This document shows, piece by piece, positions 1-33,027 of a stretch of 48,600 nt of DNA; position 1 is the stretch's first letter; every line of letters begins with the position of its first letter. The DNA comes from an uncultured Acidobacteriaceae bacterium (GTDB lineage Bacteria > Acidobacteriota > Terriglobia > Terriglobales > Acidobacteriaceae), in contig CAXTTZ010000002.1 in assembly GCA_964247325.1 (NCBI GenBank), positions 1 through 48,600 of the forward strand, in the 5' to 3' direction. The translations under genes were made by a program, and so were the position numbers. The notes beneath the pieces were generated by a model. The model was given only the letters and a program-made list of their open reading frames with translations. It did not search any database and was not told the origin of the DNA.

Positions 1-1810
1 CCCCTTCGCCGAACTGCAGCGCGTATAGCCGGCTATAGGTGCCCCCGCGCGCGATGAGCTCCTCGTGCGCCCCCTCCTCAGTAATCTCGCCGGCCTCCAA
101 CACCACAATGCGGTCCGCCCGCCGCACCGTCGACAGCCGGTGCGCAATCACCAGCACCGTCCGGTCCTGCATCAGGTTCGCAAGCGCTGCCTGCACCGCC
201 GCCTCGCTCTCCGTGTCAAGCGCCGAGGTCGCCTCATCCAACACCAGGATCGGAGCGTCCTTCACCAGCGCCCGCGCAATGGCCAACCGCTGCCGCTCGC
301 CGCCCGAAAGCCGCGTTCCCTTCTCGCCGATCACCGTGTCATACCCGTCCGGCAGCCGCAGGATAAAGTCATGGGCCAACGCCGCCCTTGCCGCCGCCTC
401 AATGCGCTCCAACGGCACGTCCGGCCGGCCGTACGCGATATTGTTACGCACCGAATCGTTGAACAGCACCGTCTCCTGCGTCACCTTGCCCACCTGCGCG
501 CGCACCGAAGCCACCGTCACCTCGCGCACATCCTGGCCGTCAATCAAAATCGCGCCGCCCGTCACGTCATAAAAGCGCGGCAGTAGGTTGGCCAAAGTAG
601 ACTTACCTGCCCCGCTCGGGCCGACCAGCGCCACCATCTCGCCTCGACCCACGCGCAGCGACACCCCGCGCAGCACTTCGCGTTGCGCCAAACCCCGCTC
701 ATACCCGAAGCGCACCTCGCGAAACTCCACCGTTTCGCGAAACGGGACGAGCGCCGGCGCGCCTTTGCGCTCCTGCACCTCGTCCTGCTCATCCATAAAA
801 CGGAAGATCTCCTGGCTCGCGCCGACCGCCTGCTGGAAGCTGTTGTAGTACAGCGGCATCTTGCGCACAGGGTCGTACAACGCGATGACCGCGATCAAAA
901 ACGCAATAAAACTGCCCGCCGTGTCCCCATGCAAAATGCGTTGCCGGCCAAACAGCAGCAGCAGCGCAATGCCCACCGCGCCCAGCGCGTCCATCAGCGG
1001 CGAAGAGATGGACTGCACTGCGACTGAACGCATATTCGCCGCCAACAATCGCGCCGCCGCGCTGCGGAACCGTCGCATCTCCCACGGCTCCATCCCAAAG
1101 GCCTTCACGATGCCATTCCCAGTGATGGTCTCCTGCACAAGGTTTTGAATCTCGGCCAGTTTGTCCTGCCCGCGGCGCGTCGTTTTGCGCACGCTGCGCC
1201 CGATGCGCCGAGCCGAGATCACAATCACCGGCACAAACAGCAGCAGCACCCAGGCCATCCGCCCGCCCGCAAGAACCACGGCGCCGATCATAAAAATTAG
1301 CGTAAAGATCTGTTGCAAAAAGTCGCCCAGCACAGTGGACATCGCATTTTGCACCCGCTCTACATCGTTGATCAGCGTGGACTGCAAGGTGCCCGTCGGT
1401 TGTCGCTGAAAGAAGCTCGTCGACCGCCGCAGCAGCGAGCCATACAGGTCATTGCGCAGGTCAGTCATCATGCCAAAGCCGGCGCGGTTGGCCAGCAGCG
1501 TCCCCGCATAGTCACACACGGCCTTTAGCCCAGCCGAGGCGACCAGCGCCAACGCCACCACCGTCCACGCATTATGAAAGCTGTGCGGCAGCCAGCGCTG
1601 CAGATCGACGCGGTGCGCCGTACGCGGCACCGCGAACACCAGCACCCGATCCGGCGACGCCACCGGGCTTAATACATGGTCCACAATCGGCTTGATCAGC
1701 AGAATGCGAAACGCCTGCATCGCTCCCACCACCGCCATCAGCAAAACGCTGATAAACACCTGCCCCCCATACGGCCGCATATACCGCAGCAAGCGTCCCA
1801 CGCGCCTCAT
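1..1810 (-). CDS. msbA: ABC transporter permease/ATP-binding fusion, MsbA (lipid A flippase)-like; 3' end runs off the window
   Basis: Manual translation from ATG at 1810 (MRRVGRLLRYMRPYGGQ...) gives an N-terminal TM region, then Walker A GPSGAGKST, signature LSGGERQR, Walker B ILVLDEATSALD and H-loop IAHRLST, ending ...YSRLYALQFGEG at the edge. Absent from the ORF track because no stop lies in the window. Confidence 0.85.
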   Translation of the reverse strand, partial: MRRVGRLLRYMRPYGGQVFISVLLMAVVGAMQAFRILLIKPIVDHVLSPVASPDRVLVFAVPRTAHRVDLQRWLPHSFHNAWTVVALALVASAGLKAVCDYAGTLLANRAGFGMMTDLRNDLYGSLLRRSTSFFQRQPTGTLQSTLINDVERVQNAMSTVLGDFLQQIFTLIFMIGAVVLAGGRMAWVLLLFVPVIVISARRIGRSVRKTTRRGQDKLAEIQNLVQETITGNGIVKAFGMEPWEMRRFRSAAARLLAANMRSVAVQSISSPLMDALGAVGIALLLLFGRQRILHGDTAGSFIAFLIAVIALYDPVRKMPLYYNSFQQAVGASQEIFRFMDEQDEVQERKGAPALVPFRETVEFREVRFGYERGLAQREVLRGVSLRVGRGEMVALVGPSGAGKSTLANLLPRFYDVTGGAILIDGQDVREVTVASVRAQVGKVTQETVLFNDSVRNNIAYGRPDVPLERIEAAARAALAHDFILRLPDGYDTVIGEKGTRLSGGERQRLAIARALVKDAPILVLDEATSALDTESEAAVQAALANLMQDRTVLVIAHRLSTVRRADRIVVLEAGEITEEGAHEELIARGGTYSRLYALQFGEG

Positions 1811-1955: not shown

Positions 1956-2374
1956 ATGTTCGGTTCTAGTATTTATGTCGTGCAAGACTCCTCACACTTG
2001 GTCGTCATCGATCCGATAAGTTATTGGTCCGTTTTCTCAGGTGCTTTTGTCTTATACCCACTTTGGCTTTTTCTTACACCCAAGTATTTCAGCAAACGTA
2101 AAGCTCTCCTCTTGGCCTGCACCGCACTGCTCTGGTTATGCTTCACATCAATTACCCAGCTAACGCTGGACCGCACTACCGGCACAGCTCATTTTGAGCA
2201 GTTTATGTTTCTGCATTGGTCGAGATAGACCATGCCTTCGTCCGCACTGGTTCCACCACAAATCAACTCGCGCTACAATACACAGACGGCTCCGTTCTTC
2301 TATTCTCCATGCTTGACCAAATGCCCGGTAAAGATAACGCCTCATACGCTATCAACAGATTCCTCGGCCGTTAA
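1956..2374 (+). pseudogene. Frameshifted 2-TM membrane protein, paralog of the 4042..4595 gene
   Basis: MFGSSIYVVQDSSHLVVIDP...TQLTLDRTTG...HWSR stops at 2228, but the -1 frame continues EIDHAFVRTGSTTNQLALQYTDGSVLLFSMLDQMPGKDNASYAINRFLGR to TAA at 2374. Both halves align by eye with the 4042..4595 product. Confidence 0.65.
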
Positions 2375-2439
2375 GATTTGCAGTGTCTCCGCATGAAGGG
2401 CAAATAGCACTATCTTTTGATGCCCACAGCTAGAATCAG

Positions 2440-3135
2440 CTACCGTCCGATTGCGGAACGCAGCTGATCCATGTCGCCTGCCTCGGAACTGATCAAGAAC
2501 AGGCCACCATCTTGGGGACTCTCTCGGAGGTACACGCGAACGTTCTTCATCCAGCTTCGGTCGAAGGCTGAAGTCGGCTGGACATCATCTGCGCCCAACA
2601 AAGGAACGTAGAAGGGATGAGCGCGAAACGCAGGTTCCTGAATCGTAGGTAACCAAATGGAGCGCTGGTGCGCAAGGTATATCTCCGTGGAAACATCAAG
2701 TAAACAGCACAGCAGCGCACCCGAGCCGCAGTACGCTGGAAATGCTGAGGTAAGTGCGGCATCCTCGTCCATCAAGTAGAACAGGGTTTCATGCTGTAGA
2801 CGTGAGAACTCGTCCCAGCGGAGCTTGTCGAAATCAGACTGTTGAAGCAAACGCGGCGGACTTCCCGGACGCACACCAAGCCCAAGGTCCGGCATCCACT
2901 CCGCGGCATGATCTGTCAGTAGATTGACCTCCTCTACCGTATGCAGCGCCGAACCCTGGAGAAAAACAATTGGCCGCAGACGCTGTTCCTGCATGAGCGA
3001 TCCCACCCAACGTAACAACGCCTCGGTCAATTCCTGTTTCTCTTCCGTTTTCAGGGGAAACGTTGGATACGGGATCAGCGCGGCTTCAAAAGGAGCCACG
3101 CTCGAAACCGTTTGCAGCAAGATTGCCTTCGTCAT
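2440..3135 (-). CDS. Hypothetical protein (paralog of 3132..4049 product)
   Basis: 231-aa open frame; ATGA overlap with the upstream stop at 3132-3135 and a GAGG RBS; shares the P-x-F/Y-x3-PF-x2-PLL...W...YL-x-ES-x2-D-x-G motif with its neighbour. Confidence 0.75.
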   Translation of the reverse strand: MTKAILLQTVSSVAPFEAALIPYPTFPLKTEEKQELTEALLRWVGSLMQEQRLRPIVFLQGSALHTVEEVNLLTDHAAEWMPDLGLGVRPGSPPRLLQQSDFDKLRWDEFSRLQHETLFYLMDEDAALTSAFPAYCGSGALLCCLLDVSTEIYLAHQRSIWLPTIQEPAFRAHPFYVPLLGADDVQPTSAFDRSWMKNVRVYLRESPQDGGLFLISSEAGDMDQLRSAIGR

Positions 3136-4049
3136 GACTTTTTGACCTCTGGTGAAGGGTAGGGCCAAACGACATTTTGCCGCTCCAATGTTTCCAGCAC
3201 TTCGATCAAGACAGCATCGAACTCCGGGTTGCCAAATGCAAGCAGAACGCCTGCGTCTTCGCGGCTTTCGATCAGGTACCCGTCAAACACGCTAAACCAT
3301 AGGGCAAGCGTTTCGGGAGAAGCATCCATGAAATGCCGGGCCTGTAATAGGGGAAGAACAAAGGGCAGTCCCGAATATGCCGGGTCATCGAGTACAGCGC
3401 CGCCGAACACGGCCTTGCTCTTCGCCAAAAAGCCGTCCTGGAGTCTGTACAGGCCGTCTACAACGCCCTGCATATCATGGCCGTTCTCTTCGAGCCATGC
3501 CTTGGCCGAAGCAGGTATCTCAATGGCAGGCGCAGATGTTTGCACATCAGGTTTTAGCCAAAGCAGCATCATATCGCCAATGCCGAAAAAATCTTGACGC
3601 TGGCGTTCGTCCTGCTTTTGCAAAAACCAATAGGTATAATCGCCAATCCAGTCGGACAGCTTAAAGCCGCCATTCTTGATCGCGTTTTCTATGTCCTGGG
3701 CCGTGGGCGGTTTTACTTTTGTGCCGTCCGGCGGTATGGCATACCCGGCTAGGGGTTCGTACTCCAGGCTGGTCTGAAGAAAGCGTTCTGCTTGTTCTTC
3801 GGAGACAATGCGAAAGCGAATGAAGTTCTCCTGACGCAGTCCACGTTGGGCCAGCACTTCCTTGAGTACGTTGATAAAGGTATGAAACCACTGCTGCACC
3901 AAAAACGGCATCGGGTAAGGAAAGCCGCCGATCCAATACACGGAAGCCGTTTCGATCTTGCGTGATCGATGGAACGGAAAGATTTCTGCCGAACTCAAAC
4001 GCCGCCGAGGTGTCGGTGCGCTTGTGGTCTCAGTCGGTTTGTCACTCAT
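3132..4049 (-). CDS. Hypothetical protein (paralog of 2440..3135 product)
   Basis: 305-aa open frame from ATG 4049 (MSDKPTET...), overlapping the upstream stop at 4042-4044; no recognisable family. Confidence 0.75.
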   Translation of the reverse strand: MSDKPTETTSAPTPRRRLSSAEIFPFHRSRKIETASVYWIGGFPYPMPFLVQQWFHTFINVLKEVLAQRGLRQENFIRFRIVSEEQAERFLQTSLEYEPLAGYAIPPDGTKVKPPTAQDIENAIKNGGFKLSDWIGDYTYWFLQKQDERQRQDFFGIGDMMLLWLKPDVQTSAPAIEIPASAKAWLEENGHDMQGVVDGLYRLQDGFLAKSKAVFGGAVLDDPAYSGLPFVLPLLQARHFMDASPETLALWFSVFDGYLIESREDAGVLLAFGNPEFDAVLIEVLETLERQNVVWPYPSPEVKKS

Positions 4050-4595
4050 GGGCTGGCTCACCAGGTTGGGAAACATTCAAAAACTGGTTCACGGCAGCAA
4101 CGGCTTCACTCTGGTTGCCTTGATCCGTGAAACCTCCCAAACTGATACGATGGCCACCCTGGAGTACAATAACAAAGCTTACGGCCCCGCCGTCTGTCTC
4201 AAGGGTGGAATACGCTACATCCTGTAAATGATAGCTTTCTTCATCTGAGAGAAAAGGTAGGTGTTCGTTCTTTATCGTACAAATACCTGCTTGGCGATCC
4301 AGTAAAAGTGATGTTGGCTGCAAGGAGTAGTAAGTGATCACGGCCGAAAGGAACGCGATCACTCCTACAAGCAGATTTACCTTCCATCTCCAGGTCAGTT
4401 GCTGCTTTACATTCACCAGCTTACCTTGATAAAGAATTGTTTCCCCAGGCCTCGTTAGCCAAGCACCAAGGGAACCCATCAACCACCATATGCAATAATG
4501 TTTACGACAATGAAGAACACACCCATGAAGTAATTGGGAGGGTCGTCGATTCGCAGCGCGTAGTTATTCAGCCATGTGATGTGAAACGAACCCAC
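4042..4595 (-). pseudogene. 2-TM membrane protein with C-terminal soluble (PH-like?) domain; one apparent frameshift near 4494
   Basis: GTG at 4595 sits 5 nt after AGGAG and reads MGSFHITWLNNYALRIDDPPNYFMGVFFIVVNII. Restoring one missing base (ATT ATT [T]GC) joins it to the 4042..4482 ORF (CIWWLMGSLGAW...LLVGVIAFLSAVITYY...SLLLDRQAG...AVNQFL). May be intact if the indel is a sequencing error. Confidence 0.65.
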
Positions 4596-4603
4596 GCCTT
4601 CTC

Positions 4604-5334
4604 CTACGCAAAAGGACTGTCGGCGTTTGCTGCAACACCTGCGTTGCCGTCAAAAGTAATCACTTTAGCCCAAAGAACTGCAGCTAAAATTCTAGTGAGC
4701 GTGAAATCAGTCGCGGCTGCTTGGAATTTAGCATCTGTAGCTTTCACGGATTTTCAGCAACAAGAGCTTTACTCGCCAGAACGCCGAGTTTGCCCTCCAT
4801 GGTTGTGTATGAAAGATTAAGACCAGGATAGAAGCCGAAGTTAGCAGCAAAGACGTTCGTAAACCAAAAGCTACTAGTTTTGTGATGGAATTTATAATAA
4901 TGATGAACGTGCTCTTGTATGCTAGTCAGAATTGTAGGCTGGTGAATCTGCTCCGGTTGATGATGATCTTCCGTTCGCGTGTGCACAAAAGTGTCGTTGC
5001 GCGGCGAGATATTCACTTGATGGTGCACGCCAATATGCGTCGTATTCGTCGTCCCCACGATGGTGTGCTGGTGATTCGTCTTGATCAGTTCAGTACGGCT
5101 GCCCGTGACGGTCAGCTTGTCATCCTTGAGCACATTCTTGGTGTCGTTACCTTCGAATTGATCCCACACGTCGCCATGCACCAAAGACACACAGGCTCCC
5201 GTGGTCCCGCTGAGCGCGGTAGGACTGGTCATGGCGCGGGGATTGAGATTCTTAAACGGCAGCTGCTGGGCGTCGTTTGCATACCCATTTGGCCGCGTTT
5301 GCGTCAGCACCGACCCGGTAAAGACGTTCACCAT
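4604..5334 (-). CDS. Stand-alone gp5/VgrG C-terminal-like beta-helix (spike-like) protein; apparent frameshift at 4751-4754
   Basis: GGAGG RBS and ATG at 5334; 8-residue repeats LVHGDVWD/QFEGNDTK/NVLKDDKL/TVTGSRTE/LIKTNHQH/TIVGTTNT/THIGVHHQ. The frame stops at 4744, but adding one A to an A4 run gives ...AEKSVKATDAKFQAAATDFTLTRILAAVLWAKVITFDGNAGVAANADSPFA, with its stop at 4604 overlapping the next RBS. Confidence 0.6.
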
Positions 5335-5563: not shown

Positions 5564-6925
5564 CTACACCCGGGCATCCTTCTCCCGCGCCAAGAACCGC
5601 TCCATAAACTTGGTATCAAACTGCCCCGACCGAAACTCCGGATCGGCAAAGATTCGCTGGTGCAGCGGGATGGTCGTATGGATGCCCTGCACCACGAACT
5701 GACTCAGCGCGCGCTGCATCTTGTCCATCGCCTCCTCGCGGTCCTTACCGTGGCAGATCAGCTTGGCGATCAGCGAATCATAATACTGCGGCACCACGCC
5801 CTCAGCGTACTGCGCCGTGTCAACGCGCACGCCGTTGCCGCCGGGCACGTTGTAGACGGTGATCTTTCCCGGGCTCGGCGTGAACTTCTCCGGGTGCTCC
5901 GCATTGATGCGGCACTCGATCGCGTGCCCGACGATCTCCGGCCGCTTGGGCAAAATCTCCGCGAGCTTCTCGCCCGAAGCGATGCGCAGCTGCGCCTTTA
6001 CCAGGTCGACACCGGTGACCATCTCCGTCACAGGGTGCTCGACCTGAATGCGCGTATTCATCTCGATAAAGTAAATGGACCCATCCTCGTCCATCAGAAA
6101 CTCAATCGTGCCGGCGTTCCAGTAGCCGATCTCCTTCAAGCTTCGCTCGATTGTCTTGCCCAGCTGCTCGCGCAGCTTGGGCGTCACCTGCAGGCTCGGC
6201 GCCTCTTCGATCAGCTTCTGGTGCCGCCGCTGGATGGAGCACTCGCGCTCCCCCAAGCTCATCACATTGCCGTGCTCATCGGCCAGCACCTGAAACTCGA
6301 TGTGCCGCGGCCGCTCGATGAATTTCTCCATATACAGCTCGCCGTTGCCGAACGCATTGAGCGCCTCGGTAGAGGCCTGCTGAAACAGTCCCGGTAGCTC
6401 TTCCTTGCTGCGCACGATGCGCATGCCGCGCCCGCCGCCGCCGGCCACAGCCTTCAAAATGACCGGGTACCCCACCGCGCGCGCCCACTCCAGCGCTGCG
6501 CCTTCACTTTCAATGACGCCGTCGGAGCCGGGCAGAATCGGCACCTTCACCTTCTTCATGGTCTGCCGCGCCGTGGACTTTTCGCCCATCATCCGCGTCA
6601 CCTCTGGCGGCGGCCCGATAAACTTGATGTTCGAAGCCCGGCACACCTCGGCAAAGTTCGCGTTCTCGCTCAGAAGCCCGTAGCCCGGATGAATCGCCTC
6701 CGCCCCAGCGATCTCCGCAGCCGAGATCACCGCCGGTACGTTGAGATAGCTGTCCGCCGAACGCGGCGGCCCGATGCAAATCGCCTCGTCCGCAAAGCGT
6801 ACATGCAAGCTGTTGCGGTCGGCCTCCGAGTACACGGCCACCGTACGCACGCCCAGCTCCTTGCATGCGGAGATGACCCGCAGCGCAATCTCTCCTCGGT
6901 TGGCAATCAAAACCTTACGAAACAT
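5564..6925 (-). CDS. accC: Acetyl-CoA carboxylase, biotin carboxylase subunit
   Basis: [63 protein letters not shown]. Confidence 0.97.
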
Positions 6926-9694: not shown

Positions 9695-9775
9695 GCTTCA
9701 CTTTTGTGCGCCGCGGGGTATGCGCCCATGTACCCTACCTGCTGCGACGGCGCTCGGACCACTACACTAACAGTT

Positions 9776-11851
9776 ATGCACCTTCGGCCGTTTGCCAGCC
9801 GCCTCGCTGTTCCTCTTCCCTCGATTCGCGTGCTGAGCGCCATTACGGCCTTCTCTGCCAGCTGTTCGTTCGCCCAAATGGCTCCAACCCCCGCCGTGCC
9901 CCCGGCGCAACCAGCACCCGCCAGCAGTCTGCCCTCGGTACCCGCGCCCGTTCCGGCCCAAACGCCCGCCTCTCCTGAGGTGCAAACGCCCGCTCCCTTT
10001 CCGGCGCAAACCACAACGCCTGTCGAGCCTGCCTACCAGGATCCGCTCGAAAAACCTCTGCCCACACCCACTGCGCCTGCCAGCCCCGCGCCGCAGCCGG
10101 TAGAGATGCCCCCTCCCGCTACTGTTGCTTCTCTGCCCTCCATAGCCGTCGACTACCCCACGCCCACGGTCGTCTTTCACGACAATCTTGGCTCGGCCTA
10201 TATCAACGACGACGACACGATCTACCCCATGGCTCTGCGACTTTACTCACTCGGCTACCTAGACTCGGCCTTTATTGGCATGCGGCCCTGGACGCGGCGC
10301 AGCCTCTTCCACATGCTCCAAAAAACCGCGCCGGCGATCCAAGCCGATGACAATGACGAAGCGCTGGGCATCTATGAGCAGCTCATGCGCTATCTGCGCG
10401 CTGAAGATCCCGACGTGCCCGAATCGGCTACGAACTCGCTCCCCAGCCCAGCCGGCGAACCCCAGCGCGGCTCGGTGTACGGCGTCCACACCGTGTACAC
10501 ACGCTTGATGGGCGTCACCGGATTGACCTTGCGGGACAGCTACCACCTGGGTCAAAGCGTTGTGAATGACTACGCTCGTCCGTACCAGCCCGGCTTCAAT
10601 AACATCACAGGCTTTTCCACGCTGAACGAAACTGGGCGCTTTTCCTTGTATGCCCGCGGCGAGTACCAACACGCTCCCAGCGCTGCCGGGTACGATCTTC
10701 CGCTGGCGAGCTATGTCTCCTCTATCGATCAAATCAAATTCGCGGCGCCGAACGCTCCGGCTGACACTGTGCCCTACGGCCCTATACCGTCCTCCAACCC
10801 TTTTCGGCTCCAAGAAGCCGCGCTCTCCTTTCACGTGCTCGGCCATGAGTTTACCGGTGGTAAGTCGGACGCCTGGCTTGGGCCGGCAGCCGGCGGCGCC
10901 ATGGCTTGGAGCAACAACGCCGAAAACATCTACTCGTTTCGCATCAACCGCGTCGAGCCGCTCTATGTCCCGTTGCTCGACAAGGTGCTGGGCCCGGTTC
11001 GCTATGATTTCTTCGTTGGCTCCCTCAAAGGGCACACCGCCCCCAACCAGCCGTGGATTCACTCTGCTATGTTTGCCTTCCGGCCGTCCTCAAACTTTGA
11101 GTTCGGCTTTCAGCGCACCGTCATCTGGGGCGGCCGGGGCCACGAGCCCGTTACCTTCCACACATTTCTGCGCAGTTTCTTTTCCTTTAGTGACACCACC
11201 GGCAATCTCGCCGAAAAGCTAAGTGCAAATGACCCCGGTGCCCGCTTTAGCGACTTCAGCTTTTCGTGGCGGCTGCCGTATCTGCGCAAGTACGTCACCC
11301 TGTACACCGATTCCATCTGCCATGACGATGTCACGCCTGTTAGCGCTCCACGCCGCGCTGCCTACCGGCCCGGTATTTACCTTTCGCAGATTCCGGGCCT
11401 GCGCAAATTTGATCTCCGTGCCGAGGCCACCAGCACTGACACCTCCACACTGCGCAGCATCGGCGGCACCTTCAATTATTTTGAAGGTCTGCAACCGCAG
11501 GGTTACACCAATAAGGGCTTTCTGCTGGGCGACTGGGTCGGCCGCGAAGCCAAAGGCGGTCAAGCTTGGTTAACCTACCATCTGTCCCCCAATGAATGGG
11601 TGCAGCTGGCGTACCTGAATAAGAAGACGCCAAAGGACTTCATTGCAAGCGGCACCACGCAGAACCAGATCAAAGCCGAGGTGGTCAAGCGTTTGCGTCC
11701 GGATGTGGAACTTGACGCCTGGTTCCAGTACGAGCGCTGGGACGCCCCGATCTACAAGGCAACGCACCAAAACGACACCGTCATCGCCGCCCAGTTCACC
11801 TTTTACCCTAAGCTCCGCTCCGCCCCCACTCTACGCGGCACAGGCTGGTAG
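9776..11851 (+). CDS. wzi: Capsule assembly Wzi family outer-membrane protein
   Basis: Signal peptide, Pro-rich linker, RPWTR, WLGP...GAMAWSNNAE, FEFGFQRTVIWGG and YTNKGFLLG motifs typical of the Wzi family; adjacent to the EPS locus. Start codon uncertain. Confidence 0.8.
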   Translation: MHLRPFASRLAVPLPSIRVLSAITAFSASCSFAQMAPTPAVPPAQPAPASSLPSVPAPVPAQTPASPEVQTPAPFPAQTTTPVEPAYQDPLEKPLPTPTAPASPAPQPVEMPPPATVASLPSIAVDYPTPTVVFHDNLGSAYINDDDTIYPMALRLYSLGYLDSAFIGMRPWTRRSLFHMLQKTAPAIQADDNDEALGIYEQLMRYLRAEDPDVPESATNSLPSPAGEPQRGSVYGVHTVYTRLMGVTGLTLRDSYHLGQSVVNDYARPYQPGFNNITGFSTLNETGRFSLYARGEYQHAPSAAGYDLPLASYVSSIDQIKFAAPNAPADTVPYGPIPSSNPFRLQEAALSFHVLGHEFTGGKSDAWLGPAAGGAMAWSNNAENIYSFRINRVEPLYVPLLDKVLGPVRYDFFVGSLKGHTAPNQPWIHSAMFAFRPSSNFEFGFQRTVIWGGRGHEPVTFHTFLRSFFSFSDTTGNLAEKLSANDPGARFSDFSFSWRLPYLRKYVTLYTDSICHDDVTPVSAPRRAAYRPGIYLSQIPGLRKFDLRAEATSTDTSTLRSIGGTFNYFEGLQPQGYTNKGFLLGDWVGREAKGGQAWLTYHLSPNEWVQLAYLNKKTPKDFIASGTTQNQIKAEVVKRLRPDVELDAWFQYERWDAPIYKATHQNDTVIAAQFTFYPKLRSAPTLRGTGW

Positions 11852-11915
11852 GGAGCTGTGGGAGTGGAAGACGATGGATGAATTTGCCCAGCAGCTCCTC
11901 TTTTTTGAAACTGTT

Positions 11916-12010
11916 GTTGTCATCCCGTAGCGCAGCGGAGGAATCTGCTGTTTGCTCTGTGTTTCATTGCCTCTACATGCAAATAGCAGATTTCCTTCGG
12001 GAATGACTAC
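11916..12010. repeat. Intergenic palindromic (REP-like) element between convergent genes
   Basis: GTCATCCCG (11919) pairs with CGGGAATGAC (11998-12007), and GGAATCTGCT (11940) pairs with AGCAGATTTCC (11985), forming a long imperfect hairpin with an internal GCGCAGCGGAGG. Confidence 0.7.
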
Positions 12011-12138
12011 CAGAAAAAGCAGGAACTGCACGTTTCGGAAAGAGCGCAAGGGGTTTAACAATTAGTGCGTAGGTAGAGCGTGACATGTATTTAGCGTAAA
12101 GGCATGGCGGCTGCGCCCAACGTTGGCTACCGCGCACT

Positions 12139-13095
12139 CTACACTGCTTGCGCCACCGGCTGCTTTTCCGCCTCCACACACGCTTCGAAGTAGGCCAGCG
12201 AGCGTTGCAATCCCTCGCGCAATGGCACCACCGGCGTCCAGCCCAGTAGACGTTGCGCCTTGGAGATGTCCGGCCGGCGCTGCTTGGGATCATCCTGCGG
12301 CAACGGCTTGAAGGTGATCTCGCACTTGGAGCCGAGGAGGTTTTGAATCTCCTGGGCACACTCCAGAATGGTCCATTCCGTCGGGTTTCCGATGTTGGTC
12401 GGATCGTGCTCGTCCGACTTCGCCAGCCGCACAATGCCCTCGATCAAGTCCGACACATAGCAAAAGCTGCGCGTTTGCGACCCGTCCCCATACACCGTCA
12501 ACGGCTCGCCGCGGAGCGCCTGCATCATCAGGTTTGAGATCACACGGCCATCGTTGGCCTGGAGCCGCGGTCCATAGGTGTTAAAGATCCGCACCAGATG
12601 TGTGTTGACCTTGTGGTATCGCCGGTAAGCGGCGACGGCGGCTTCAGAAAAACGCTTTGCCTCGTCATACACTGACCGCGGCCCGATCGGGTTCACGTTG
12701 CCCCAATAGCTTTCCACCTGAGGGTGCACCTCAGGATCGCCATAGCACTCCGAGGTCGACGCGTGGAGATAACCCGCGTCGTAACGCCGCGCAATCTCTA
12801 GAGTTTGCAGCGTTCCCGCCGAACCAACCTGCAGCGTTTCAATGCCAAGCCGGATGTAATCCACCGGGCTCGCGGGCGAAGCAAAGTTGTAGACAAACTC
12901 AACCGGTCCCGGGTCATAGGGCTGGCAAATGTCGACCTGTTCGAAGCGAAAACGAGGTTCTTTCGCCAGATGCTGCAGATTTTGCAGGCTCCCGGTTGAA
13001 AGATTGTCGACCCCCAGCACCTCATGCCCTTCGCCTAGCAGCTTGTCGCAAAGGTGCGACCCAAGAAATCCTGCCGCTCCTGTTACCAAAATCAT
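12139..13095 (-). CDS. UDP-glucuronate decarboxylase (UDP-xylose synthase) family NAD-dependent enzyme
   Basis: [61 protein letters not shown]. Confidence 0.92.
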
Positions 13096-13129
13096 GACCG
13101 CTCCTTTGCGCCCGACGCCTGCTGCGTGT

Positions 13130-14539
13130 TCATGCGCTCACCGCCAAGGGCTCGCGCACGGGCGTCGCCGCGGAACGCCCCACGCTGATGTAGGTAAATC
13201 CATGCTCAAGCATCTGCTTGGGCTCATACAGGTTGCGACCGTCCACGATGATGGGGTATCGCATCAGCTCGTGAAGCTGCGCCAAGTCTAAAGCCGCAAA
13301 TTCCTTCCAATCGGTAAGGATAAGCAGCGCATCGGCGTCGCGTGCAGCGTCCTGGGCAGAGGCGGCATAGCGCATCTGCGCGCTTTCGGGCAGCTCCGCG
13401 CGCGCGCGGTCCATGGCAGCGGGGTCGTAGGCGTCCACGCTGCAACCTTCGCTCAACAGCATCTCAATCAGATCGAGGGCTGGGGACTCACGAATATCGT
13501 CGGTCTCGCCTTTAAACGCCAATCCCAATACCGCCAGCCGCTTGCCGCGCAGGGTCCAAAGCGCGGAGCGCACCTTGGACAGAAAGCGCTTCTTCTGCGC
13601 AACGTTGATCTTTTCGACCTCTTTGAGTAGGCAGAAGTCCACGCCCAATTGCTCTGCGACTGACCGAAATGCAGCTACATCCTTGGGGAAACAGGATCCG
13701 CCATAACCAATGCCCGGCCGCAGAAACTTTGGACCGATACGCGAATCGAGCCCAATGCCGCGCGCCACCTGCTCCACATCGGCGTCGGCCGCCTCGCACA
13801 GGTTGGCCACCGCGTTGATGAACGAGATCTTGAGCGCCAGGAAGGAGTTCGACGCGTGTTTGATGATCTCCGCACTCTTGGTCGAAGTCAGCAGCAGCTG
13901 CGGAGGCTGCGCTGCCGTGCAGACACCCGGAATGACATGGCCGGTCTCGTAATAGCTACCCTCAGTCAGCGGGGCGTAGATGGATTTGAGCACAGCGGCT
14001 GCCCGGCTGCTATCGGCGCCGACCACGATCCGATCCGGATGTAGGAAGTCTTCCACCGCCGTACCTTCCCGCAAAAATTCGGGGTTCGACACCACATCGA
14101 ACATCTCGCGGCGCACGCCGTTTCGCTCGATCACGCGCCGGATCCACTCATTGGTATAGACCGGGACCGTGCTTTTTTCCACAATCACTTTGTAGGAGGT
14201 AATATGCCGCGCGATCTCGCTGGCCACGGCCTCCACATAGGACAGATCGGCATCCCCTGTCTCCGATTGCGGGGTGCCGACCGCGATGAAGATCGCATCG
14301 CTTTGCTGCGTGGCTTCCGCCAGATCGGTGGTAAAGCGAACCTTTTGATTTCGGTAGCGTTCCAGCAACTCCGGCAGGTGATTCTCGTGAATGAGCGTAT
14401 CGCCGCCGCGCAGCGCTGCCACCTTGCGCTCGTCGTTGTCGACGCATACCACCTGATGACCCATCTCCGCGAAACAAACGGCGGCCACAAGACCAACATA
14501 GCCGGAGCCCACGACAGCAATCTGATTCCCTGCGCTCAT
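13130..14539 (-). CDS. ugd: UDP-glucose 6-dehydrogenase
   Basis: [43 protein letters not shown]; GGAG RBS before ATG 14539. Confidence 0.95.
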
Positions 14540-14663
14540 TTTTCTCCCAAACTCCACAACATCGACTAAGTAGAACTATCCTAAGCCACACAGGTGCTTC
14601 CTCATATACCCATTCGGGCAACCTTTGGTAACCTCGTGTTATCTCTCGGGTAAACTGGAGTCA

Positions 14664-16913
14664 ATGACGCCGTTTCATCTCGAGTCAAGCAGCGTGGCTC
14701 CGGCCCCTGCCGCTGGGGCACCGTTCGATACCCCGAGCGCCGACACCAGTCTTTCCGACTCGATTCTTGTTCTCCGGAAACGCAAATGGCTCATCATCGG
14801 CGCGGCGCTGCTGGGCGGGCTGTACGGTTATTACAAGGCGGAAACGCAGCCTCGGCTATATGAGGCTTACGGCAATATCGAGATACGCAGCGGTGCTGCC
14901 TCCGAGTACCGCGTCGCCCCGACGCCCCTAGCCGAAGACACCTATGACATCCCGACCCAGACCGCCATTTTGAAGAGCGACAGCCTCCTGCTTACGGTGG
15001 CGCGCGATCTGGATCTTCCTAACAATCCGGTCTTTACCGGCGCGCGCGGCCCCACGCCACACGTCAGCCTCGAGGACCTTGCCGTGCGCGAGGGCACCAT
15101 CAATGCGCTGCAGGGCGACATCACGGTTGCGCCGATCCCGAAGACCGACATCGTCCGCATCTCGTGCAAAACGCTCAATGCAAAGCTTTCGGCCGAGATC
15201 ATCAACAAGCTCGTGCAGGAGTACATCCAGCGCAGCTTCCAGTCTCGCTTCGACGCGACCAAGCTTGTTTCCAACTGGCTTTCCAATCAGTTGGGTGACC
15301 TGAAACAGCAGGTGGAAACCTCGCAAGAGCAGCTGATCGACCTGGGCAAGCGGCTCGGCGTTTTGGGCTTCGACACGAGCCACAACGAGATCACCACGGG
15401 CATCGACGACCTGACCCGCGCCGCCGGCCAAGCGCAGATCGCGCGCATCATCGCCGAGTCGCGCTATCGCGTGCTGGAGGGCATGGACCCTAACGCGCTG
15501 GACGCCTCGATCGGCAGCATCGGCACGGGCAGCGACGCGACCCTGAACACGTTGCGGGCGCAGCGCGAACAGTTGCGCGCGCAGTTGGCCGGCGTGGACA
15601 CCACGGCTGGCCCCAACCTGCCGCGCGAAAAGGCTCTACGGGCGCAGCTTGATACCCTGGACCACGGCATTGCGGAGGAGCAAAGCCGGCTGCTGACCCA
15701 GGCCAAGGAAAATTTGGTCGCCGCCCGGGCCAACGAGACGCAAACGCGCGGTGCGCTCGAAGCCGCAAAGTCTGATGCCTATAAGCTGCGCAACGATCTA
15801 GTCGAGTACACCATCCGGCAGCGTGAGTTCGACTCCAACCGGACGTTATACGAAGGGCTGCTGCAACGGCTGCGCACAGCCGGCGTGCAAGCCGGGCTGG
15901 AGTCGCAGGAGATCGATATTGTAGACAACGCGACGCCTCCGGTTTCGCCGTCGCTGGAGCCGAAAGGCCGCATGCTGCTAATCAACATCCTCGTCTTTTC
16001 CGGAGTGGCCGTAATCCTTGCCTTCATCCTTGAAAGCCTGGACACCAGCTTGAGCAGTGTGGCGGAGATCGAAACGATCTCCGGACTGCCCTCCTTGGCG
16101 CTCATTCCCAAGGCGCGGCGGCCGGCGGATGCGGGCACGCTCAGCCCCGCGCAGCGCAACCTCCTTGTGCTTTCCAGCCCAAAATCGCAGTTTGCCGAGG
16201 CGTTTCGCGCCCTGCGCACCTCGCTGCTGCTGTCGGTCGCCGGCCGCGAGCCGCAGCTCATTCTTTTGACCAGCGCGACCCCGTCCGAAGGCAAGACGAC
16301 TGCCTCGCTCAACCTTGCGGCCGTGCTCGCTCAGCGGGGCGTGCGCGTGTTGCTGATCGACGCCGACCTGCGCCGGCCGACGGTGCATCACCGCTTCGGT
16401 TTGAACGGCAAAGTCGGGCTCACCTCGGTGCTTACCGGCAGCTTGCCGCTTAGCGAAGCGGTCCAAACACTGCCCGAGCTGCCGACCTTGGACGTGTTGG
16501 CCAGCGGGCCCATTCCACCGTTCCCGACCGAAATGCTCAGCTCCGACGCCATGCGCCAGCTACTCGAGGAGTATAAAGGCTTGTACACCCATATCGTGAT
16601 GGATTCGCCACCGCTGCTTTCAGTGACCGATAGCGTGGTGCTGGCGCGCGGCGCCGATGCGGTGGTGCTGATCGTGCGCTACGGCAAATCGACCAAGCAC
16701 GCCGTCCGCCGGGCGCGCGACCTCCTGGTGCGCTCGGGCGCCAAGCTGTCCGGTCTGGCCCTCAACGCGGTCGATCTAAACTCGCCGGAGTACTACGCGT
16801 ACTATGGGTACTCGGGCTATGCCGGCTACGGCTCGGGGGGCGTGGAGAGCAAGGCGTGGGACCCCGAAGCCGGCTCGGCAGCAGGCGGCACGCGGCCGGG
16901 AGGCAAGCTATGA
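14664..16913 (+). CDS. wzc: Polysaccharide co-polymerase/BY-kinase (Wzc/GumC-type)
   Basis: Two TM helices flanking a coiled coil; AEAFRALRT, Walker A SATPSEGKTT, A' LLIDAD, B IVMDSPP, and a C-terminal Tyr cluster EYYAYYGYSGYAGY. Confidence 0.93.
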   Translation: MTPFHLESSSVAPAPAAGAPFDTPSADTSLSDSILVLRKRKWLIIGAALLGGLYGYYKAETQPRLYEAYGNIEIRSGAASEYRVAPTPLAEDTYDIPTQTAILKSDSLLLTVARDLDLPNNPVFTGARGPTPHVSLEDLAVREGTINALQGDITVAPIPKTDIVRISCKTLNAKLSAEIINKLVQEYIQRSFQSRFDATKLVSNWLSNQLGDLKQQVETSQEQLIDLGKRLGVLGFDTSHNEITTGIDDLTRAAGQAQIARIIAESRYRVLEGMDPNALDASIGSIGTGSDATLNTLRAQREQLRAQLAGVDTTAGPNLPREKALRAQLDTLDHGIAEEQSRLLTQAKENLVAARANETQTRGALEAAKSDAYKLRNDLVEYTIRQREFDSNRTLYEGLLQRLRTAGVQAGLESQEIDIVDNATPPVSPSLEPKGRMLLINILVFSGVAVILAFILESLDTSLSSVAEIETISGLPSLALIPKARRPADAGTLSPAQRNLLVLSSPKSQFAEAFRALRTSLLLSVAGREPQLILLTSATPSEGKTTASLNLAAVLAQRGVRVLLIDADLRRPTVHHRFGLNGKVGLTSVLTGSLPLSEAVQTLPELPTLDVLASGPIPPFPTEMLSSDAMRQLLEEYKGLYTHIVMDSPPLLSVTDSVVLARGADAVVLIVRYGKSTKHAVRRARDLLVRSGAKLSGLALNAVDLNSPEYYAYYGYSGYAGYGSGGVESKAWDPEAGSAAGGTRPGGKL

Positions 16914-17908
16914 GCTTCGTGAGCTTGCGGCTAATGCCGCTATGGCGCTTTGGGCTTATCTTCGTTCTGCTGGCGAGCTTGGCCCTCCGTACCACGGCGG
17001 CGGCGCAATACAACGGCCCACCCACGGCGGCTGACCGCTCCGCCTCTGCCACGGTGACGACCGACACGGCGGTCCTAAACCCGACCTCGCCCGATACGGT
17101 ACTGAACGTCGGTGATCTGGTCTCCGTTCGGCTGTTTGGCGACCCTGACTACACGGCCAACACGCGGCTCGGCGCGGATGGCACGGTGCTTTTGCCTTTG
17201 ATCGGCAGCGTTGCATTGCGCGGCGTCAACGTTCGCGACGCCGAGCAGCTGATCGCGCAAAAGCTCCAAACGGCAGGCATGTATCGCAACCCCCAGGTCA
17301 TTTTGCAGATCACGGAAGGGCCGGCAGCGGTGGTCACGCTTGCCGGCGAGATGCACGCCGTTGTACCGATCATTGGTTCGCGCAACCTGTTCTCCGTGCT
17401 CGCTGCCGGCGGCGGCCTGCCCTCCACAGCCAGCCGCACCGTCACCATCCTGCGGCCGGGTCAGGCCGAGCCCCTCTCGGTGGATATCGGCAACGACCCT
17501 GCCCACAGCGCTTCGGCGAACATCCCGGTCTTCGCGGGCGATACCCTGCTCATTTCACGGATCGGCGTCGTGTATGTGCTCGGCGAGTTTCGTGCTCCCG
17601 GCCTGGTGCCGCTGACCAACTACGGTCCGCTGACCTTGACGCAGGTGTCCGCCGTGGTGGGCGGCCCGCTGTTCGATGCCAAGTATAAGGAGTTGCACCT
17701 CATTCGCACCGCCGGCGACCGCCGCACCGTTACCACGCTCAACATCCGCGATGTGCTGTACGGCCGCGTACCGGACCCCATCATGCAGCCGAACGACATC
17801 GTATTTCTGCCGCCCAGCGTGCTCAAGGCCTCGGTCAGCAACGGCAGCCTCGGCTCCATTCTGGGTGTCATCTCGTTTGCGCTGGCCGCCGTGTCGACCT
17901 TTCGCTGA
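16910..17908 (+). CDS. wza: Polysaccharide export (OPX/Wza-like) protein with SLBB domains
   Basis: Poly_export motif LNVGDLVSV...DGTVLLPLIGSV...YRNPQV, SLBB repeats (VYVLGEFRAPG, PNDIVFLP); ATGA overlap with wzc. Confidence 0.85.
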   Translation: MSFVSLRLMPLWRFGLIFVLLASLALRTTAAAQYNGPPTAADRSASATVTTDTAVLNPTSPDTVLNVGDLVSVRLFGDPDYTANTRLGADGTVLLPLIGSVALRGVNVRDAEQLIAQKLQTAGMYRNPQVILQITEGPAAVVTLAGEMHAVVPIIGSRNLFSVLAAGGGLPSTASRTVTILRPGQAEPLSVDIGNDPAHSASANIPVFAGDTLLISRIGVVYVLGEFRAPGLVPLTNYGPLTLTQVSAVVGGPLFDAKYKELHLIRTAGDRRTVTTLNIRDVLYGRVPDPIMQPNDIVFLPPSVLKASVSNGSLGSILGVISFALAAVSTFR

Positions 17909-17914
17909 GGCCGT

Positions 17915-19159
17915 GTGAACGAAGGCATCGCTGGAACAGACCGGCGGGTCCGGCTCGCCTATCTGGTCAGCCACCCGATCCAATACCAGGCGCCGCTGCT
18001 GCGCCGTATCGCCCAGGAGCCGGACATCGACCTCCTCGTGCTGTTCGGCTCCCATTTTTCGGTGAGGTCGCATCATGACGAAGGTTTCGGCATGACGTTT
18101 GCCTGGGACATTCCGCTGCTGGAGGGCTACCAATCGCGTTTGCTGCCTGCATGGCGCGATCCCGGCACGGTGTCGGCCACCACGCCGTGGAGCCGTGGCC
18201 TCCTGCGCGCCCTGTGCGCCGCCGACGGCTCGCCCGCTTTTGACGCGCTGTGGGTGCATGGGTATGCAAGCCTTAACTCGCTCGGGGCCATGCTGGCGGC
18301 CAAGGCCCTGGGCATTCCGGTGCTGCTGCGCGCCGAGAGCTGGCTCGCGGATCGTCCCCGGACGTGGCGAACGCTGCTTGGCAAGCGGGCCTTCTTCGCC
18401 GCCCTGCGGCCGCTCGTTTCCGGTGTGCTGCCCATTGGCTCGCAAAATGCCCAGTATTGGCGACAGTACCTCCGTGCGGGCGTGCCGCAGTTTGCTATGC
18501 CCTATGCGGTCGACAACGCGTTCTTTGCGGAGCAAACCAGCTTGGCCGAGGCCCGATTGCCGGCGCTGCGCGCGGAGTTGGACCTCGTTCCGGGGCGGCC
18601 CGTGATTCTGTTTGCCTCCAAGCTCCAGGCCCGCAAGCATGCAGACGATCTTCTAGCGGCGTTCAGCAAGCTTTGCGAGCGTGGGTCATGCTATGCGCCT
18701 CCATACTTGGTTGTCGTGGGCGACGGGCCGGAGCGGGCGGCGCTCGAGGCCCAGGCGCGGGCCCTGAACCTAACAGCCGCGGTGCGCTTTGCCGGCTTTC
18801 GCAACCAAACCGAGCTGCCCGGCTTCTTCGCTTTGGCTGAAGTTTTTGTGTTGCCCGCACAGCACGAGCCGTGGGGCTTGGTGGTGAACGAGGCCATGGC
18901 CGCGGGCCGGCCCGTGGTGGTGTCGAGCGACGTCGGCGCCGCCGCCGATCTGGTGCAAGACAGCGTAAACGGCTTTGTGTACCCTACCGGAAACCTCGAT
19001 GCGCTTGCCTCGGCGCTGGCCGCCGTGCTCGGCTCCCCGACAACCGCGGCGGCCATGGGAAGAGCGGCTGCCGAACATATGCGCACCTGGGACTTTGAGG
19101 CCGACCTCGCCGGACTGCGCCGCGCCTTGGCCTCCGTCACCGGAAAAATACGGGCCTGA
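17915..19159 (+). CDS. Glycosyltransferase, GT4 family
   Basis: SHPIQYQAPL N-terminus, VVGDGPER, FVLP..HEPWGLVVNEAMAAG (EX7E). Confidence 0.92.
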   Translation: MNEGIAGTDRRVRLAYLVSHPIQYQAPLLRRIAQEPDIDLLVLFGSHFSVRSHHDEGFGMTFAWDIPLLEGYQSRLLPAWRDPGTVSATTPWSRGLLRALCAADGSPAFDALWVHGYASLNSLGAMLAAKALGIPVLLRAESWLADRPRTWRTLLGKRAFFAALRPLVSGVLPIGSQNAQYWRQYLRAGVPQFAMPYAVDNAFFAEQTSLAEARLPALRAELDLVPGRPVILFASKLQARKHADDLLAAFSKLCERGSCYAPPYLVVVGDGPERAALEAQARALNLTAAVRFAGFRNQTELPGFFALAEVFVLPAQHEPWGLVVNEAMAAGRPVVVSSDVGAAADLVQDSVNGFVYPTGNLDALASALAAVLGSPTTAAAMGRAAAEHMRTWDFEADLAGLRRALASVTGKIRA

Positions 19160-19164
19160 CCTCC

Positions 19165-20322: not shown

Positions 20323-20933
20323 TGCGACGCGCGCCCGACTACCACGCCGGCGAACACGCACCCGACCCGGGCGGCGATGCCTACACGCGCCCGGCCTTTC
20401 CGCTCAGCAATCGCGCACGCCGCGCCGTGTGGAACCTTTGCTGGCTTCTGCTGTACCGGCCTTCGCCGCGGCCGCTGCATCGCTGGCGCGCGCTGTTGTT
20501 GCGGCTTTTTGGCGCGCAGCTCGGGCCTCACTGCCACTTCTATCCCGGCTCGCGCGTATGGGCACCCTGGAATCTCCGATGCGAAGACCACGTAGCGGCC
20601 GGAGATGGCGCCGAGATCTACAACCCCGCGCTAATTGAGCTGCGGTCCCACGTTATTCTCTCGCAAAACAGCTATCTGTGCGGCGCTACCCACGACTACA
20701 ACGACCCCGCATTTCCCCTGCTCGCCTTTCGTATGCGTGTGGAGCGCTATGCCTGGATCTGCGCGCGCGCCGCGGTCGCCCCCGGGGTGCACGTGGGCGA
20801 AGGGGCCGTGCTGGGCCTGGGTGCGGTTGCCACGCGCGATCTCCAGCCCTGGACCGTCTACAGCGGCAACCCCGCGCAGCCGCAGCGCAATCGCACGCCG
20901 CCTCCTGATCTCGCCCGTGAGGCCGCTGCATGA
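20322..20933 (+). CDS. WcaF-like hexapeptide-repeat acetyltransferase
   Basis: PSPRPLHRWRALLLRLFGA, PWNL, SQNSYLCGATHDY, WICA..APGVHVGEGAVLG, YSGNPA. Confidence 0.88.
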   Translation: MRRAPDYHAGEHAPDPGGDAYTRPAFPLSNRARRAVWNLCWLLLYRPSPRPLHRWRALLLRLFGAQLGPHCHFYPGSRVWAPWNLRCEDHVAAGDGAEIYNPALIELRSHVILSQNSYLCGATHDYNDPAFPLLAFRMRVERYAWICARAAVAPGVHVGEGAVLGLGAVATRDLQPWTVYSGNPAQPQRNRTPPPDLAREAAA

Positions 20934-21757: not shown

Positions 21758-21782
21758 CCGCGGCCTTATGGCTGAATTTCCT

Positions 21783-22163: not shown

Positions 22164-22366
22164 GAATGTGTTCCTGCAATCCTTCCTAAAGCCAGCTCGA
22201 AACGAACATACGATGTGGTCGCCCCCAGGGGCGATGCACTTGGCTCATCTTACGCTGTTCGCGGGAGTTTCGCCTGTAGCGACCGCATGCATTTCGAAAA
22301 CTTTGGTTTCATCGTTTGAATCTTCCGTTCCGACCCGCCTGCCCTAGGGTGGTACCCTGGAAGCCG

Positions 22367-26602: not shown

Positions 26603-28351
<1,749 letters not shown>

Positions 28352-32981: not shown

Positions 32982-33027
32982 CAGGTCTCCTCCGCTCTCC
33001 CCCGAGAGCGTGGCGAGGCATCGGCTG

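Follow-up and report, generated by a model that had tools for sequence, protein, structure and literature searches.

An orphan T6SS spike island in Acidobacteria and its probable, separately encoded beta-helix needle

The window analyzed here, a whole stretch of 48,600 nucleotides from an uncultured Acidobacteriaceae bacterium, contains an orphan spike island between positions 1956 and 5334. It is part of an acidobacterial T6SS, the core cluster of which is found elsewhere in this genome, on contig C3. We see in this inserted block a novel form of T6SS spike, in which a trimer of gene 1 would dock head-to-tail, as a needle, on a short VgrG hub made elsewhere, genes 3 and 4 would load the needle as adaptors, and the membrane proteins encoded by genes 2 and 5 may confer immunity. 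Taken as a whole, this reading is in our judgment probable. Gene content, synteny, co-occurrence and repeat periodicity are observed; docking and folds are predictions; the replacement of PAAR and the adaptor and immunity roles are inferences from these. A bolder form of the reading, in which a PAAR-free T6SS with one short VgrG hub uses interchangeable, polymorphic needles as an antibacterial membrane-damaging weapon, with a two-subunit DUF4123-like adaptor and two alternative families of small inner-membrane immunity proteins in arrays, is offered tentatively, as somewhat less than evenly probable.

Layout and insertion of the island

A sequence-only reading had described four tightly coupled minus-strand genes in an AT-rich block, and the description stands (Table 1). 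The TAG of gene 1 overlaps an AGGAG, ATGAGTGA is common to genes 2 and 3 and ATGA to genes 3 and 4, and the GC content is 51.3% versus 63.8% and 62.4% in the flanks. The block had also been placed as an insertion between accC and msbA. The site holds, the two flanking genes being 189 bp apart in one of five same-genus genomes tested (G458) and unlinked in the remaining four, whereas the name msbA does not come from Pfam, which gives ABC_membrane and ABC_tran only. The island ends carry no clear target-site repeat, and comparison with plasmid and phage records gave no match. In line with what was claimed for the window, a Pfam scan of its 27 other ORFs of at least 180 aa found no T6SS or phage family. 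The gene order is conserved elsewhere: in 33/33 loci retrieved by a full gene 3, gene 1 lies upstream of it and gene 4 is the next gene downstream.

Table 1. Features of the island and its flanks
Feature	Coordinates	Strand	Assignment	Basis
Gene 1	4604..5334	-	Likely separately encoded trimeric beta-helix needle	Weak Pfam Gp5_trimer_C/Gp5_C, T4 gp5 profile match, periodicity, complex model of a relative's pair, P0189
Gene 2	4042..4595	-	Two-transmembrane protein with beta-rich C-terminal domain; candidate immunity protein	Orthologue L016:10168-10698, hydropathy, Atlas structures, copy number
Gene 3	3132..4049	-	305 aa, intact; remote DUF4123/Tap-like adaptor candidate	Structure model, Tap3 top match, co-occurrence with TssC
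Gene 4	2440..3135	-	231 aa, intact; gene 3 paralogue, remote DUF4123/Tap-like adaptor candidate	HHalign, orthologue model
Gene 5	1956..2374	+	Divergent extra gene 2 family member	Profile matches
accC (biotin carboxylase)	5564..6925	-	Right flank of insertion	Pfam; adjoins ABC gene in G458
MsbA-like ABC transporter	2..1810	-	Left flank of insertion	Pfam ABC_membrane and ABC_tran only

The two single-base indels repaired in the earlier reading correspond to frame changes in gene 1 at about 4753, judged against intact orthologues, and in gene 2 at about 4491, and a natural, intact, near-identical protein of 243 aa (P0189) matches the two pieces of gene 1 at 99% and 98%. A third frameshift, absent from the earlier reading, lies in gene 5 near 2192, a position at which one base is missing from a run X1 contig with a depth of 2.8. 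Near-identical strains are intact at two of the three sites; the public contigs reach the gene 5 break, not those in genes 1 and 2. Three breaks within 3.4 kb are not background, because only one other frame change was found among 61 gene places compared (72 kb), and general assembly error was rejected on this ground. With genes 1, 2 and 5 frameshifted, this copy of the island is therefore either mis-assembled or decaying.

Linkage to a T6SS

The block belongs to a T6SS because the same genome carries a core cluster, because gene 3 and the sheath protein TssC co-occur, and because a short VgrG lies directly upstream in most relatives. On C3, tblastn with L018 proteins located tssB, tssC, two copies of hcp, tssE/F-like genes, tssG, tssK and clpV, so that sheath (TssB/TssC), tube (Hcp), baseplate (TssG/TssK) and ClpV are present; Pfam matches over the cut-off are VipA, TssC, TssG and VasE. 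The proteins that we take to be Hcp, TssE and TssF, from position and general resemblance, are without a family match. Of the parts expected in a canonical T6SS-i, ImpA_N (TssA) was found in none of five genomes and IcmF_C (membrane-complex TssM) in one, far from the cluster, with positive controls in both searches and divergent forms being possible. Co-occurrence with T6SS loci had been proposed as a check, and the gene 3 profile and TssC matched the identical 23 of 401 genomes (23/23 in both directions); a weak match in G187 was lost in the profile search. In L018, L174 and L178 the core cluster itself contains the cassette. Of the earlier suggestions, a novel secreted needle system standing by itself finds no support; an orphan cassette that extends a spike, with partners resembling chaperones and immunity proteins, is supported, the toxin and immunity roles being putative.

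A predicted needle on a short VgrG hub

Gene 1 is likely a gp5-like beta needle, encoded separately and assembling as a trimer. The proposed beta-helix trimer gains support from a profile match to T4 gp5 (E 6.6e-8, PDB profile search), with which gene 1 shares VxGxxxxx octads, from a period of 8 (Gly autocorrelation 0.45 at lag 8) and from a trimer predicted for a relative's protein (pLDDT 73-78); the Pfam matches to Gp5_trimer_C/Gp5_C are weak. A predicted VgrG-docking arm at the N terminus (about residues 23-56) is followed by 8-residue gp5-type repeats and then by 7-residue beta repeats. For the C-terminal part, profile matches to P22 gp26 (E 3.5e-5) and to designed coiled coils provided a coiled-coil lead, which was rejected because the hydrophobic period in 28 sequences is 7/3 (power 7.0-8.0), not 3.5 (1.1), a pattern that favors beta repeats as the preferred assignment. 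Gene 1 does not match a canonical single-chain VgrG, which joins gp27 hub, OB fold and beta-helix: Pfam finds Gp5_C repeats only, with no gp27 hub or OB fold, and in relatives hub and OB fold sit in the upstream short VgrG, whose chain runs from the OB fold into a short beta-prism and stops there.

Of the 33 loci selected by a full gene 3, 28 have a VgrG upstream. Among loci picked by their VgrG, gene 1 comes next, together with the paralogous genes 3 and 4, in 31/33 with a short VgrG and in 0/7 with a C-terminal extension of at least 190 aa, counts for which the alignment (A8) was built from VgrGs adjoining gene 3 and in which kin are not independent. In L170, no needle gene follows the short VgrG. 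Searches gave no VgrG match in the island's own assembly (71.6% complete), and 4/4 relatives with orphan islands possess one.

In a complex model from locus L070, three copies of VgrG residues 432-519 and three of gene 1 reached an ipSAE of 0.82, the best of three controls reaching 0.01; the mark used is passed by 116/157 solved and 2/215 mismatched pairs, counts that apply only roughly here. Docking runs had at least 68% of contacts in common, with a partner pLDDT of at least 73. In the model the first repeat of the needle continues the VgrG prism, and the N-terminal arms run along alternate prism residues, which we read as the outer face. With about 24 repeats and a rise of about 4.8 A, the needle would lengthen the spike by an estimated 110-120 A. 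The interface spans gene 1 residues 23-56 and includes the conserved columns D23 (27/28), L32 (25/28) and G56 (28/28). Gene 1 is predicted, then, to clamp onto the tip of the short VgrG through this conserved arm, with the qualification that the pair modeled is a relative's and that resemblance to gp5/VgrG spikes of solved structure can produce a passing score.

The adaptor pair

Genes 3 and 4 are likely DUF4123-like adaptors that would load the needle, a putative role to which their predicted folds point. That they are paralogues, as first noticed, is clear from HHalign (99.6%, E 6e-25, 213 columns). The gene 3 model (pLDDT 93) has Tap3 as its top match among 48,161 chains (Z 5.4, next 4.3; rmsd 4.3; 134 aligned), and Tap3 is also the top match of a gene 4 orthologue model (Z 6.8, next 4.7; rmsd 4.0; 133 aligned), both Z scores being under 8. 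Aligned to DUF4123 by HHalign, gene 4 gave 65% (E 6e-5, 98 columns) and a score of 37, versus at most 20.5 in 50 shuffles, and gene 3 gave 3.6%. Searches of Pfam, NCBIfam, PDB sequence, Foldseek pdb and viral, and ESM Atlas returned no named match for either gene, and Foldseek at E 0.001 returned none; PF13503 had no Pfam match in the two genes or their orthologues, nor in the island's own genome.

The likeness to DUF4123/Tap/TEC adaptors, including Tap3 (PDB 9r8g) and TecT/co-TecT, extends to the predicted core fold, the position beside vgrG and the two-gene layout, as far as the accessible text of the sources describes these (PMC12909789, PMC11582642). Unlike those adaptors, however, genes 3 and 4 lack a PF13503 match and a helical C-terminal lobe, and both would carry the alpha/beta lobe that is conserved at the N terminus of DUF4123 adaptors, whereas co-TecT is described as the effector-binding lobe. 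The short VgrGs also lack the C-terminal helix-turn-helix extension that is the known DUF4123 binding site (PMC11582642).

Membrane partners and the role of the needle

Hydropathy analysis gives gene 2 two transmembrane segments, and its structure neighbors in an Atlas search are Ycf4/EROS (TM 0.67-0.71). Gene 5, noticed earlier as a second copy of gene 2, was undetected as such in pairwise comparison, but it is a family member by profile, in two pieces (E 5e-11 and 4.9e-12). Elsewhere a further family, X, can occupy the gene 2 position. At least two gene 2/X copies occur in 8/35 loci, with up to 11 X. At the cognate position in 34 loci, 20 have gene 2 only, 9 X only, 1 both and 4 neither, so that exactly one is present in 29; with trailing arrays included, both occur in 3 loci. 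In being variable and often duplicated, gene 2 may behave like an immunity gene, and we consider genes 2 and 5 possible membrane immunity proteins. The correlation of the gene 1 C-half with gene 2 (Mantel 0.55, 15 loci) is not above that with the gene 3 control (0.75), the cassette moving as a block, and covariation specific to genes 1 and 2 was not found.

The strongest rival keeps the same architecture with a purely structural needle; genes 2, 5 and X would be membrane assembly or anchoring factors, and killing would fall to VgrG-fused and Hcp-linked effectors. We put it not far short of an even chance. Some VgrGs of the same T6SS are fused to effectors and followed by a partner gene, domain-family searches with gene 1 brought up no catalytic toxin domain, and the predicted gene 2 structure resembles membrane assembly factors, all of which fit this rival, as do the loci with neither partner and the lower correlation with gene 2. 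A structural part, however, would hardly need a C-half diverging to about 21% identity, and the variable, arrayed duplicates, the near-exclusive choice of gene 2 or X at the cognate position and the spare gene 2 paralogue in the window argue against this rival.

The tip of the spike

On the reading in which gene 1 is a docked needle, it would take the place of the PAAR tip. PAAR was found in 7/25 carrier genomes, a DUF4280 search without a working positive control being uninformative, and one 99% complete genome (G099) has one VgrG and two gene 1 islands without a PF05488 or PF13665 match. Neither genes 1-5 nor their orthologues match the PAAR, DUF4150 or DUF4280 families in Pfam. We infer that the needle likely replaces the usual PAAR tip, an unrecognized tip protein being possible. 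One hub likely can take alternative needles, and needle islands would therefore spread and accumulate like effector islands.

The known spike types have an HxH apex, described as metal bound, or a monomeric PAAR tip (PMC12407873). Neither type, as the available text presents them, accommodates another trimer set on top of the spike and tapering to 7-residue repeats, and a detachable trimeric needle with a docking arm would finish and diversify the spike differently.

Relation to known systems

A close parallel is the Francisella T6SS-ii, with PdpA and a 164-aa VgrG and with the PAAR-like IglG proposed for the tip (PMC5924787). There too, in the part of that account available, the spike is split into a hub and a separately encoded beta-helix needle. 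Francisella has one fixed pair, however, whereas here a recognizable VgrG hub keeps its OB fold and short prism, and the needle, which has a predicted docking arm, varies in sequence, occurs in several copies, is mobile and comes together with membrane partners and an adaptor-like pair.

In Serratia marcescens, VgrG1 has a long beta-prism but no toxin domain, and this prism is the proposed membrane-depolarizing effector, to which Vai1, a single-transmembrane periplasmic beta protein adjoining vgrG, gives immunity (PMC13373197). This layout, as described in the accessible text, resembles that of family X, although gene 2 and X have no Vai1/DUF3192 match in Pfam. The Serratia extension is part of VgrG, with a DUF4150 PAAR as tip and DUF2169 Tvp proteins, whereas the needle here is separate. 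A second rival is that gene 1 is a TvpC-like assembly template, a VgrG mimic held in a pre-complex with genes 3 and 4 and displaced rather than fired. In its favor, TvpC proteins form short trimers that resemble VgrG, and their genes lie downstream of vgrG next to those of accessory proteins (PMC13373197). We think this improbable: gene 1 lacks an OB fold, DUF6484 or DUF3540 match, the pairing of DUF2169 TvpA with DUF4150 PAAR that marks a Tvp system is missing (no DUF2169 match in genes 3 and 4; no DUF4150/PF13665 in 5/5 genomes tested, with a positive control), and the predicted complex seats gene 1 on VgrG, not in its stead. A prophage or tailocin tail remnant, to which Gp5 repeats, low GC and the inserted position might point, is very unlikely: the window scan found no phage genes, none of 50,697 phage records matched, a fold search with gene 4 gave no viral match, and co-occurrence with TssC is strict. 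Synteny already contradicts it.

If true, the reading of the docked needle as a weapon would make it a third type of injection-system tip and the Serratia idea of a needle as toxin directly testable; since the needle has a gene of its own, the question of whether a beta-prism can itself be the toxin is open to a clean test. A predicted role is also provided for four unnamed protein families (needle, adaptor pair and two membrane partner families) in a major soil phylum. A search of mainly open-access literature found neither a description of the island nor an acidobacterial T6SS treated at such a level of detail. By TssB, the T6SSs of Acidobacteria and Gemmatimonadetes form a branch of subtype i4b (PMC9113992); in the available text of that paper we found no analysis of their spike, adaptors or effectors. 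In Gemmatimonadota loci, VgrG is about 100 aa longer and genes 1, 3 and 4 do not adjoin it.

Affiliation with the T6SS

The island between accC and an MsbA-like ABC transporter gene, which encodes a probable beta-helix needle (gene 1), a membrane protein (gene 2), a paralogous pair (genes 3 and 4) and a convergent relative of gene 2 (gene 5), is best called a new variant form of the T6SS spike. Re-examination upheld the four minus-strand genes and overlaps described in a sequence-only reading, as well as the low GC of the block (51% versus 62 to 64% in the flanks). The proposal of a stand-alone system is not supported, as T6SS genes adjoin relatives of gene 3 and the source genome (G000) has a T6SS core cluster on contig C3, with seven orphan hcp copies elsewhere. 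The co-occurrence check speaks against it too: among 401 genomes of the order, kin among them not being independent, the gene 3 profile and TssC occur in the identical 23 and in no others. In a phylum sample, 8 of 401 genomes match, and there are 359 protein matches among 50% representatives; those records that carry a name come from Acidobacteriaceae, Bryobacteraceae and other Acidobacteriota. The G000 assembly, which is 71.6% complete, yielded no VgrG.

The T6SS of this lineage is on record as a TssB branch, in the portion of PMC9113992 available. Its core cluster, in G000 and at loci L096-L100, has no recognizable TssA, TssJ, TssL or TssM, with ImpA_N in none and IcmF_C in one of five genomes; its VWA and FHA proteins may serve in place of the membrane anchor. 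The divergent ubiquitin-like conjugation set beside the cluster in L099, with similar genes in L096, L097, L098, L024 and L025, could be a regulatory module of the acidobacterial T6SS. The orphan hcp genes lie on C4, C10, C27, C61, C62, C72 and C294; of the five inspected, several have a candidate toxin and small signal-peptide proteins after them, with up to four repeats on C10.

Coordinates of features in the window and related loci
Feature	Location	Content
Genes 1-4	window 5334-2440, minus strand
Gene 5	window 1956-2374, plus strand	distant gene 2 family member
Capsular polysaccharide cluster	window 9704-23164	Wzi, epimerase, UDP-glucose dehydrogenase, export protein, glycosyltransferases, CpsB
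groEL	window 26678-28351
TonB-dependent receptor-like genes	window 30489-33053 and 44443-48285
T6SS core cluster	G000 C3:21267-37956	two hcp genes, VWA protein, two FHA proteins, PP2C phosphatase
Ubiquitin-like set	L099:4986-8601	ThiF/E1 (E 9e-13), E2-like (UQ_con, E 5e-5), weak Prok-RING, 93-aa Ubl candidate, Ser/Thr kinase
Tandem needles	L156:4135-6515	three different needle-like genes after one short vgrG

Synteny and linkage to VgrG

The expected gene order recurs in relatives: gene 1, [gene 2], gene 3 and gene 4 follow one another in all 33 stretches fetched around full gene 3 (two with gene 3 fragments being excluded), with VgrG upstream in 28. A second route, a scan of 18 of 64 parts with a query made from VgrGs beside gene 3, gave 80 VgrG loci, and L137-L192 were examined; the two sets likely overlap. 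Here gene 1 and the gene 3/4 pair come after 31 of 33 complete short VgrGs, which end after the OB fold and a short beta-prism; L156 has three gene 1-like ORFs, as judged by eye, and the short VgrG of L170 has no gene 1 after it. Gene 1 comes next in none of seven VgrGs with a long C-terminal extension and in one of two with 38 to 52 extra residues. Excluded from these counts are four loci whose VgrG is incomplete or was not called, the six core loci of Gemmatimonadota and the weak OB-only matches. One genome, 99% complete (G099), has a single VgrG and two needle islands that both lie apart from it, which suggests that the needle is used in trans with a VgrG encoded elsewhere.

Other arrangements were seen. 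The tandem needles of L156 are possibly a heterotrimer or alternatives; L166 has two needles, and in L175 one vgrG precedes two complete islands. VgrG-effector fusions with varied C-terminal domains occur in L017, L137, L145, L162, L168, L172, L173 and L186; several have a likely immunity gene behind them, which in L017 encodes ankyrin repeats. L172 and L173, titled Janthinobacterium lividum MAG, bear the island and the same VgrG type; a mistaken label or a transfer of the island could explain this. In Gemmatimonadota (L181, L182, L184, L185, L187 and L188), the VgrG of a related T6SS is about 100 to 118 aa longer and lies within the core cluster, with genes 1, 3 and 4 absent nearby, possibly the unsplit state of the spike.

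The needle and its predicted docking

Gene 1 is spike-like, as proposed, its profile matching the T4 gp5 beta-helix. Residues 56-135 have period 8 and the C-half period 7/3, typical of beta repeats rather than a coiled coil. Family members are mostly 225 to 273 aa, a few reaching 1090. Lengthened needles (396 to 1090 aa) form a subfamily in L024, L025, L078, L080, L159, L161, L164 and L165, mostly with a giant protein of ~1600 aa ahead (a Ser/Thr kinase in L024) and gene 2 after gene 4.

A model of three cognate VgrG tips and three needles from L070 gave an ipSAE of 0.82 versus 0.01 for the best control, with contact agreement of at least 68% and partner pLDDT of at least 73. The ipSAE mark, which 116 of 157 solved pairs attain but only 2 of 215 mismatched ones, is roughly applicable here, and the score may come partly from likeness to solved spikes. 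In the model, VgrG 512-519 pairs with needle residues 49-56, and needle residues 23-46 contact alternate VgrG residues in 454-510. Since those left uncontacted are the hydrophobic ones, we infer that the needle arms would clasp the outside of the VgrG prism. Arm residues rank among the most conserved of the family.

Candidate adaptor and immunity proteins

Genes 3 and 4 are full-length paralogues with confident predicted structures and no family match. Against nine acidobacterial DUF4123 proteins, gene 4 aligned over 98 ungapped columns (65%, E 6e-5), scoring 37 versus at most 20.5 in 50 shuffles; gene 3 reached only 3.6%. Each of these DUF4123-type signals is modest, and they are mutually consistent and compatible with context. 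DUF4123 proteins connect spike proteins with cargo, according to the available parts of PMC11582642 and PMC12909789. Gene 1 is the likely client of the pair, which remains beside it in islands lacking VgrG; two trailing pairs without gene 1 (L066 and L069) are exceptions.

The gene 2 protein spans the membrane with two segments, and its predicted fold is close to Ycf4/EROS. A second membrane-protein family, family X, combines a single transmembrane segment with a beta-rich body. In 10 of 34 loci it lies between vgrG and gene 1, mostly in place of gene 2. Both families are duplicated, and some islands are trailed by arrays that include stubs of vgrG and gene 4, a pattern familiar from polymorphic toxins and their immunity arrays. 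Against an immunity role stand four of the 34 loci with neither family, the absence of a toxin domain from gene 1 and the lack of visible pair-specific covariation, and we give it about an even chance. The whole model, in which the needle itself would be the toxin, is more doubtful. It has a precedent in Serratia VgrG1, where the beta-prism extension is the proposed depolarizing effector and Vai1 the immunity protein (PMC13373197, in the part available).

Relation to known systems

PAAR (PF05488) occurs in 7 of 25 carrier genomes and nowhere within the fetched islands; PF13665 is in none of five genomes. The tests run place the island outside the PAAR, Tvp and PF13503 families, and it would work like a VgrG-adaptor-effector-immunity island. 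In the accessible portions of the sources, a division of the spike into hub and needle has a known case in Francisella (PMC5924787), and adaptors are known from work on DUF4123 and DUF2169 (PMC11883445), with nothing further on the island in PMC3482391, 10.1101/2024.12.19.629468 or PMC13584744. The published text available does not describe a needle that is polymorphic, mobile and arm-docked and comes with an adaptor pair, though supplements could list such loci.

Insertion site and frame breaks

The site is an insertion, as the sequence-only reading held, because in one of five same-genus genomes tested (G458) 189 bp separate accC from the ABC transporter gene. Frame breaks are present in genes 1 (near 4753) and 2 (near 4491), and gene 5, confirmed as a true though distant relative within the gene 2 family, carries a frameshift too. 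A natural 243-aa protein (P0189) has 98 to 99% identity to both gene 1 pieces, and at position 2192 in gene 5 a contig of run X1 (depth 2.8) has one base fewer; two of the three breaks are therefore absent from near-identical strains. Among 61 gene places compared, only one other frame change appeared, and the breaks fit local mis-assembly and recent decay alike. The capsule cluster, groEL and TonB-dependent receptor-like genes of the window are ordinary.
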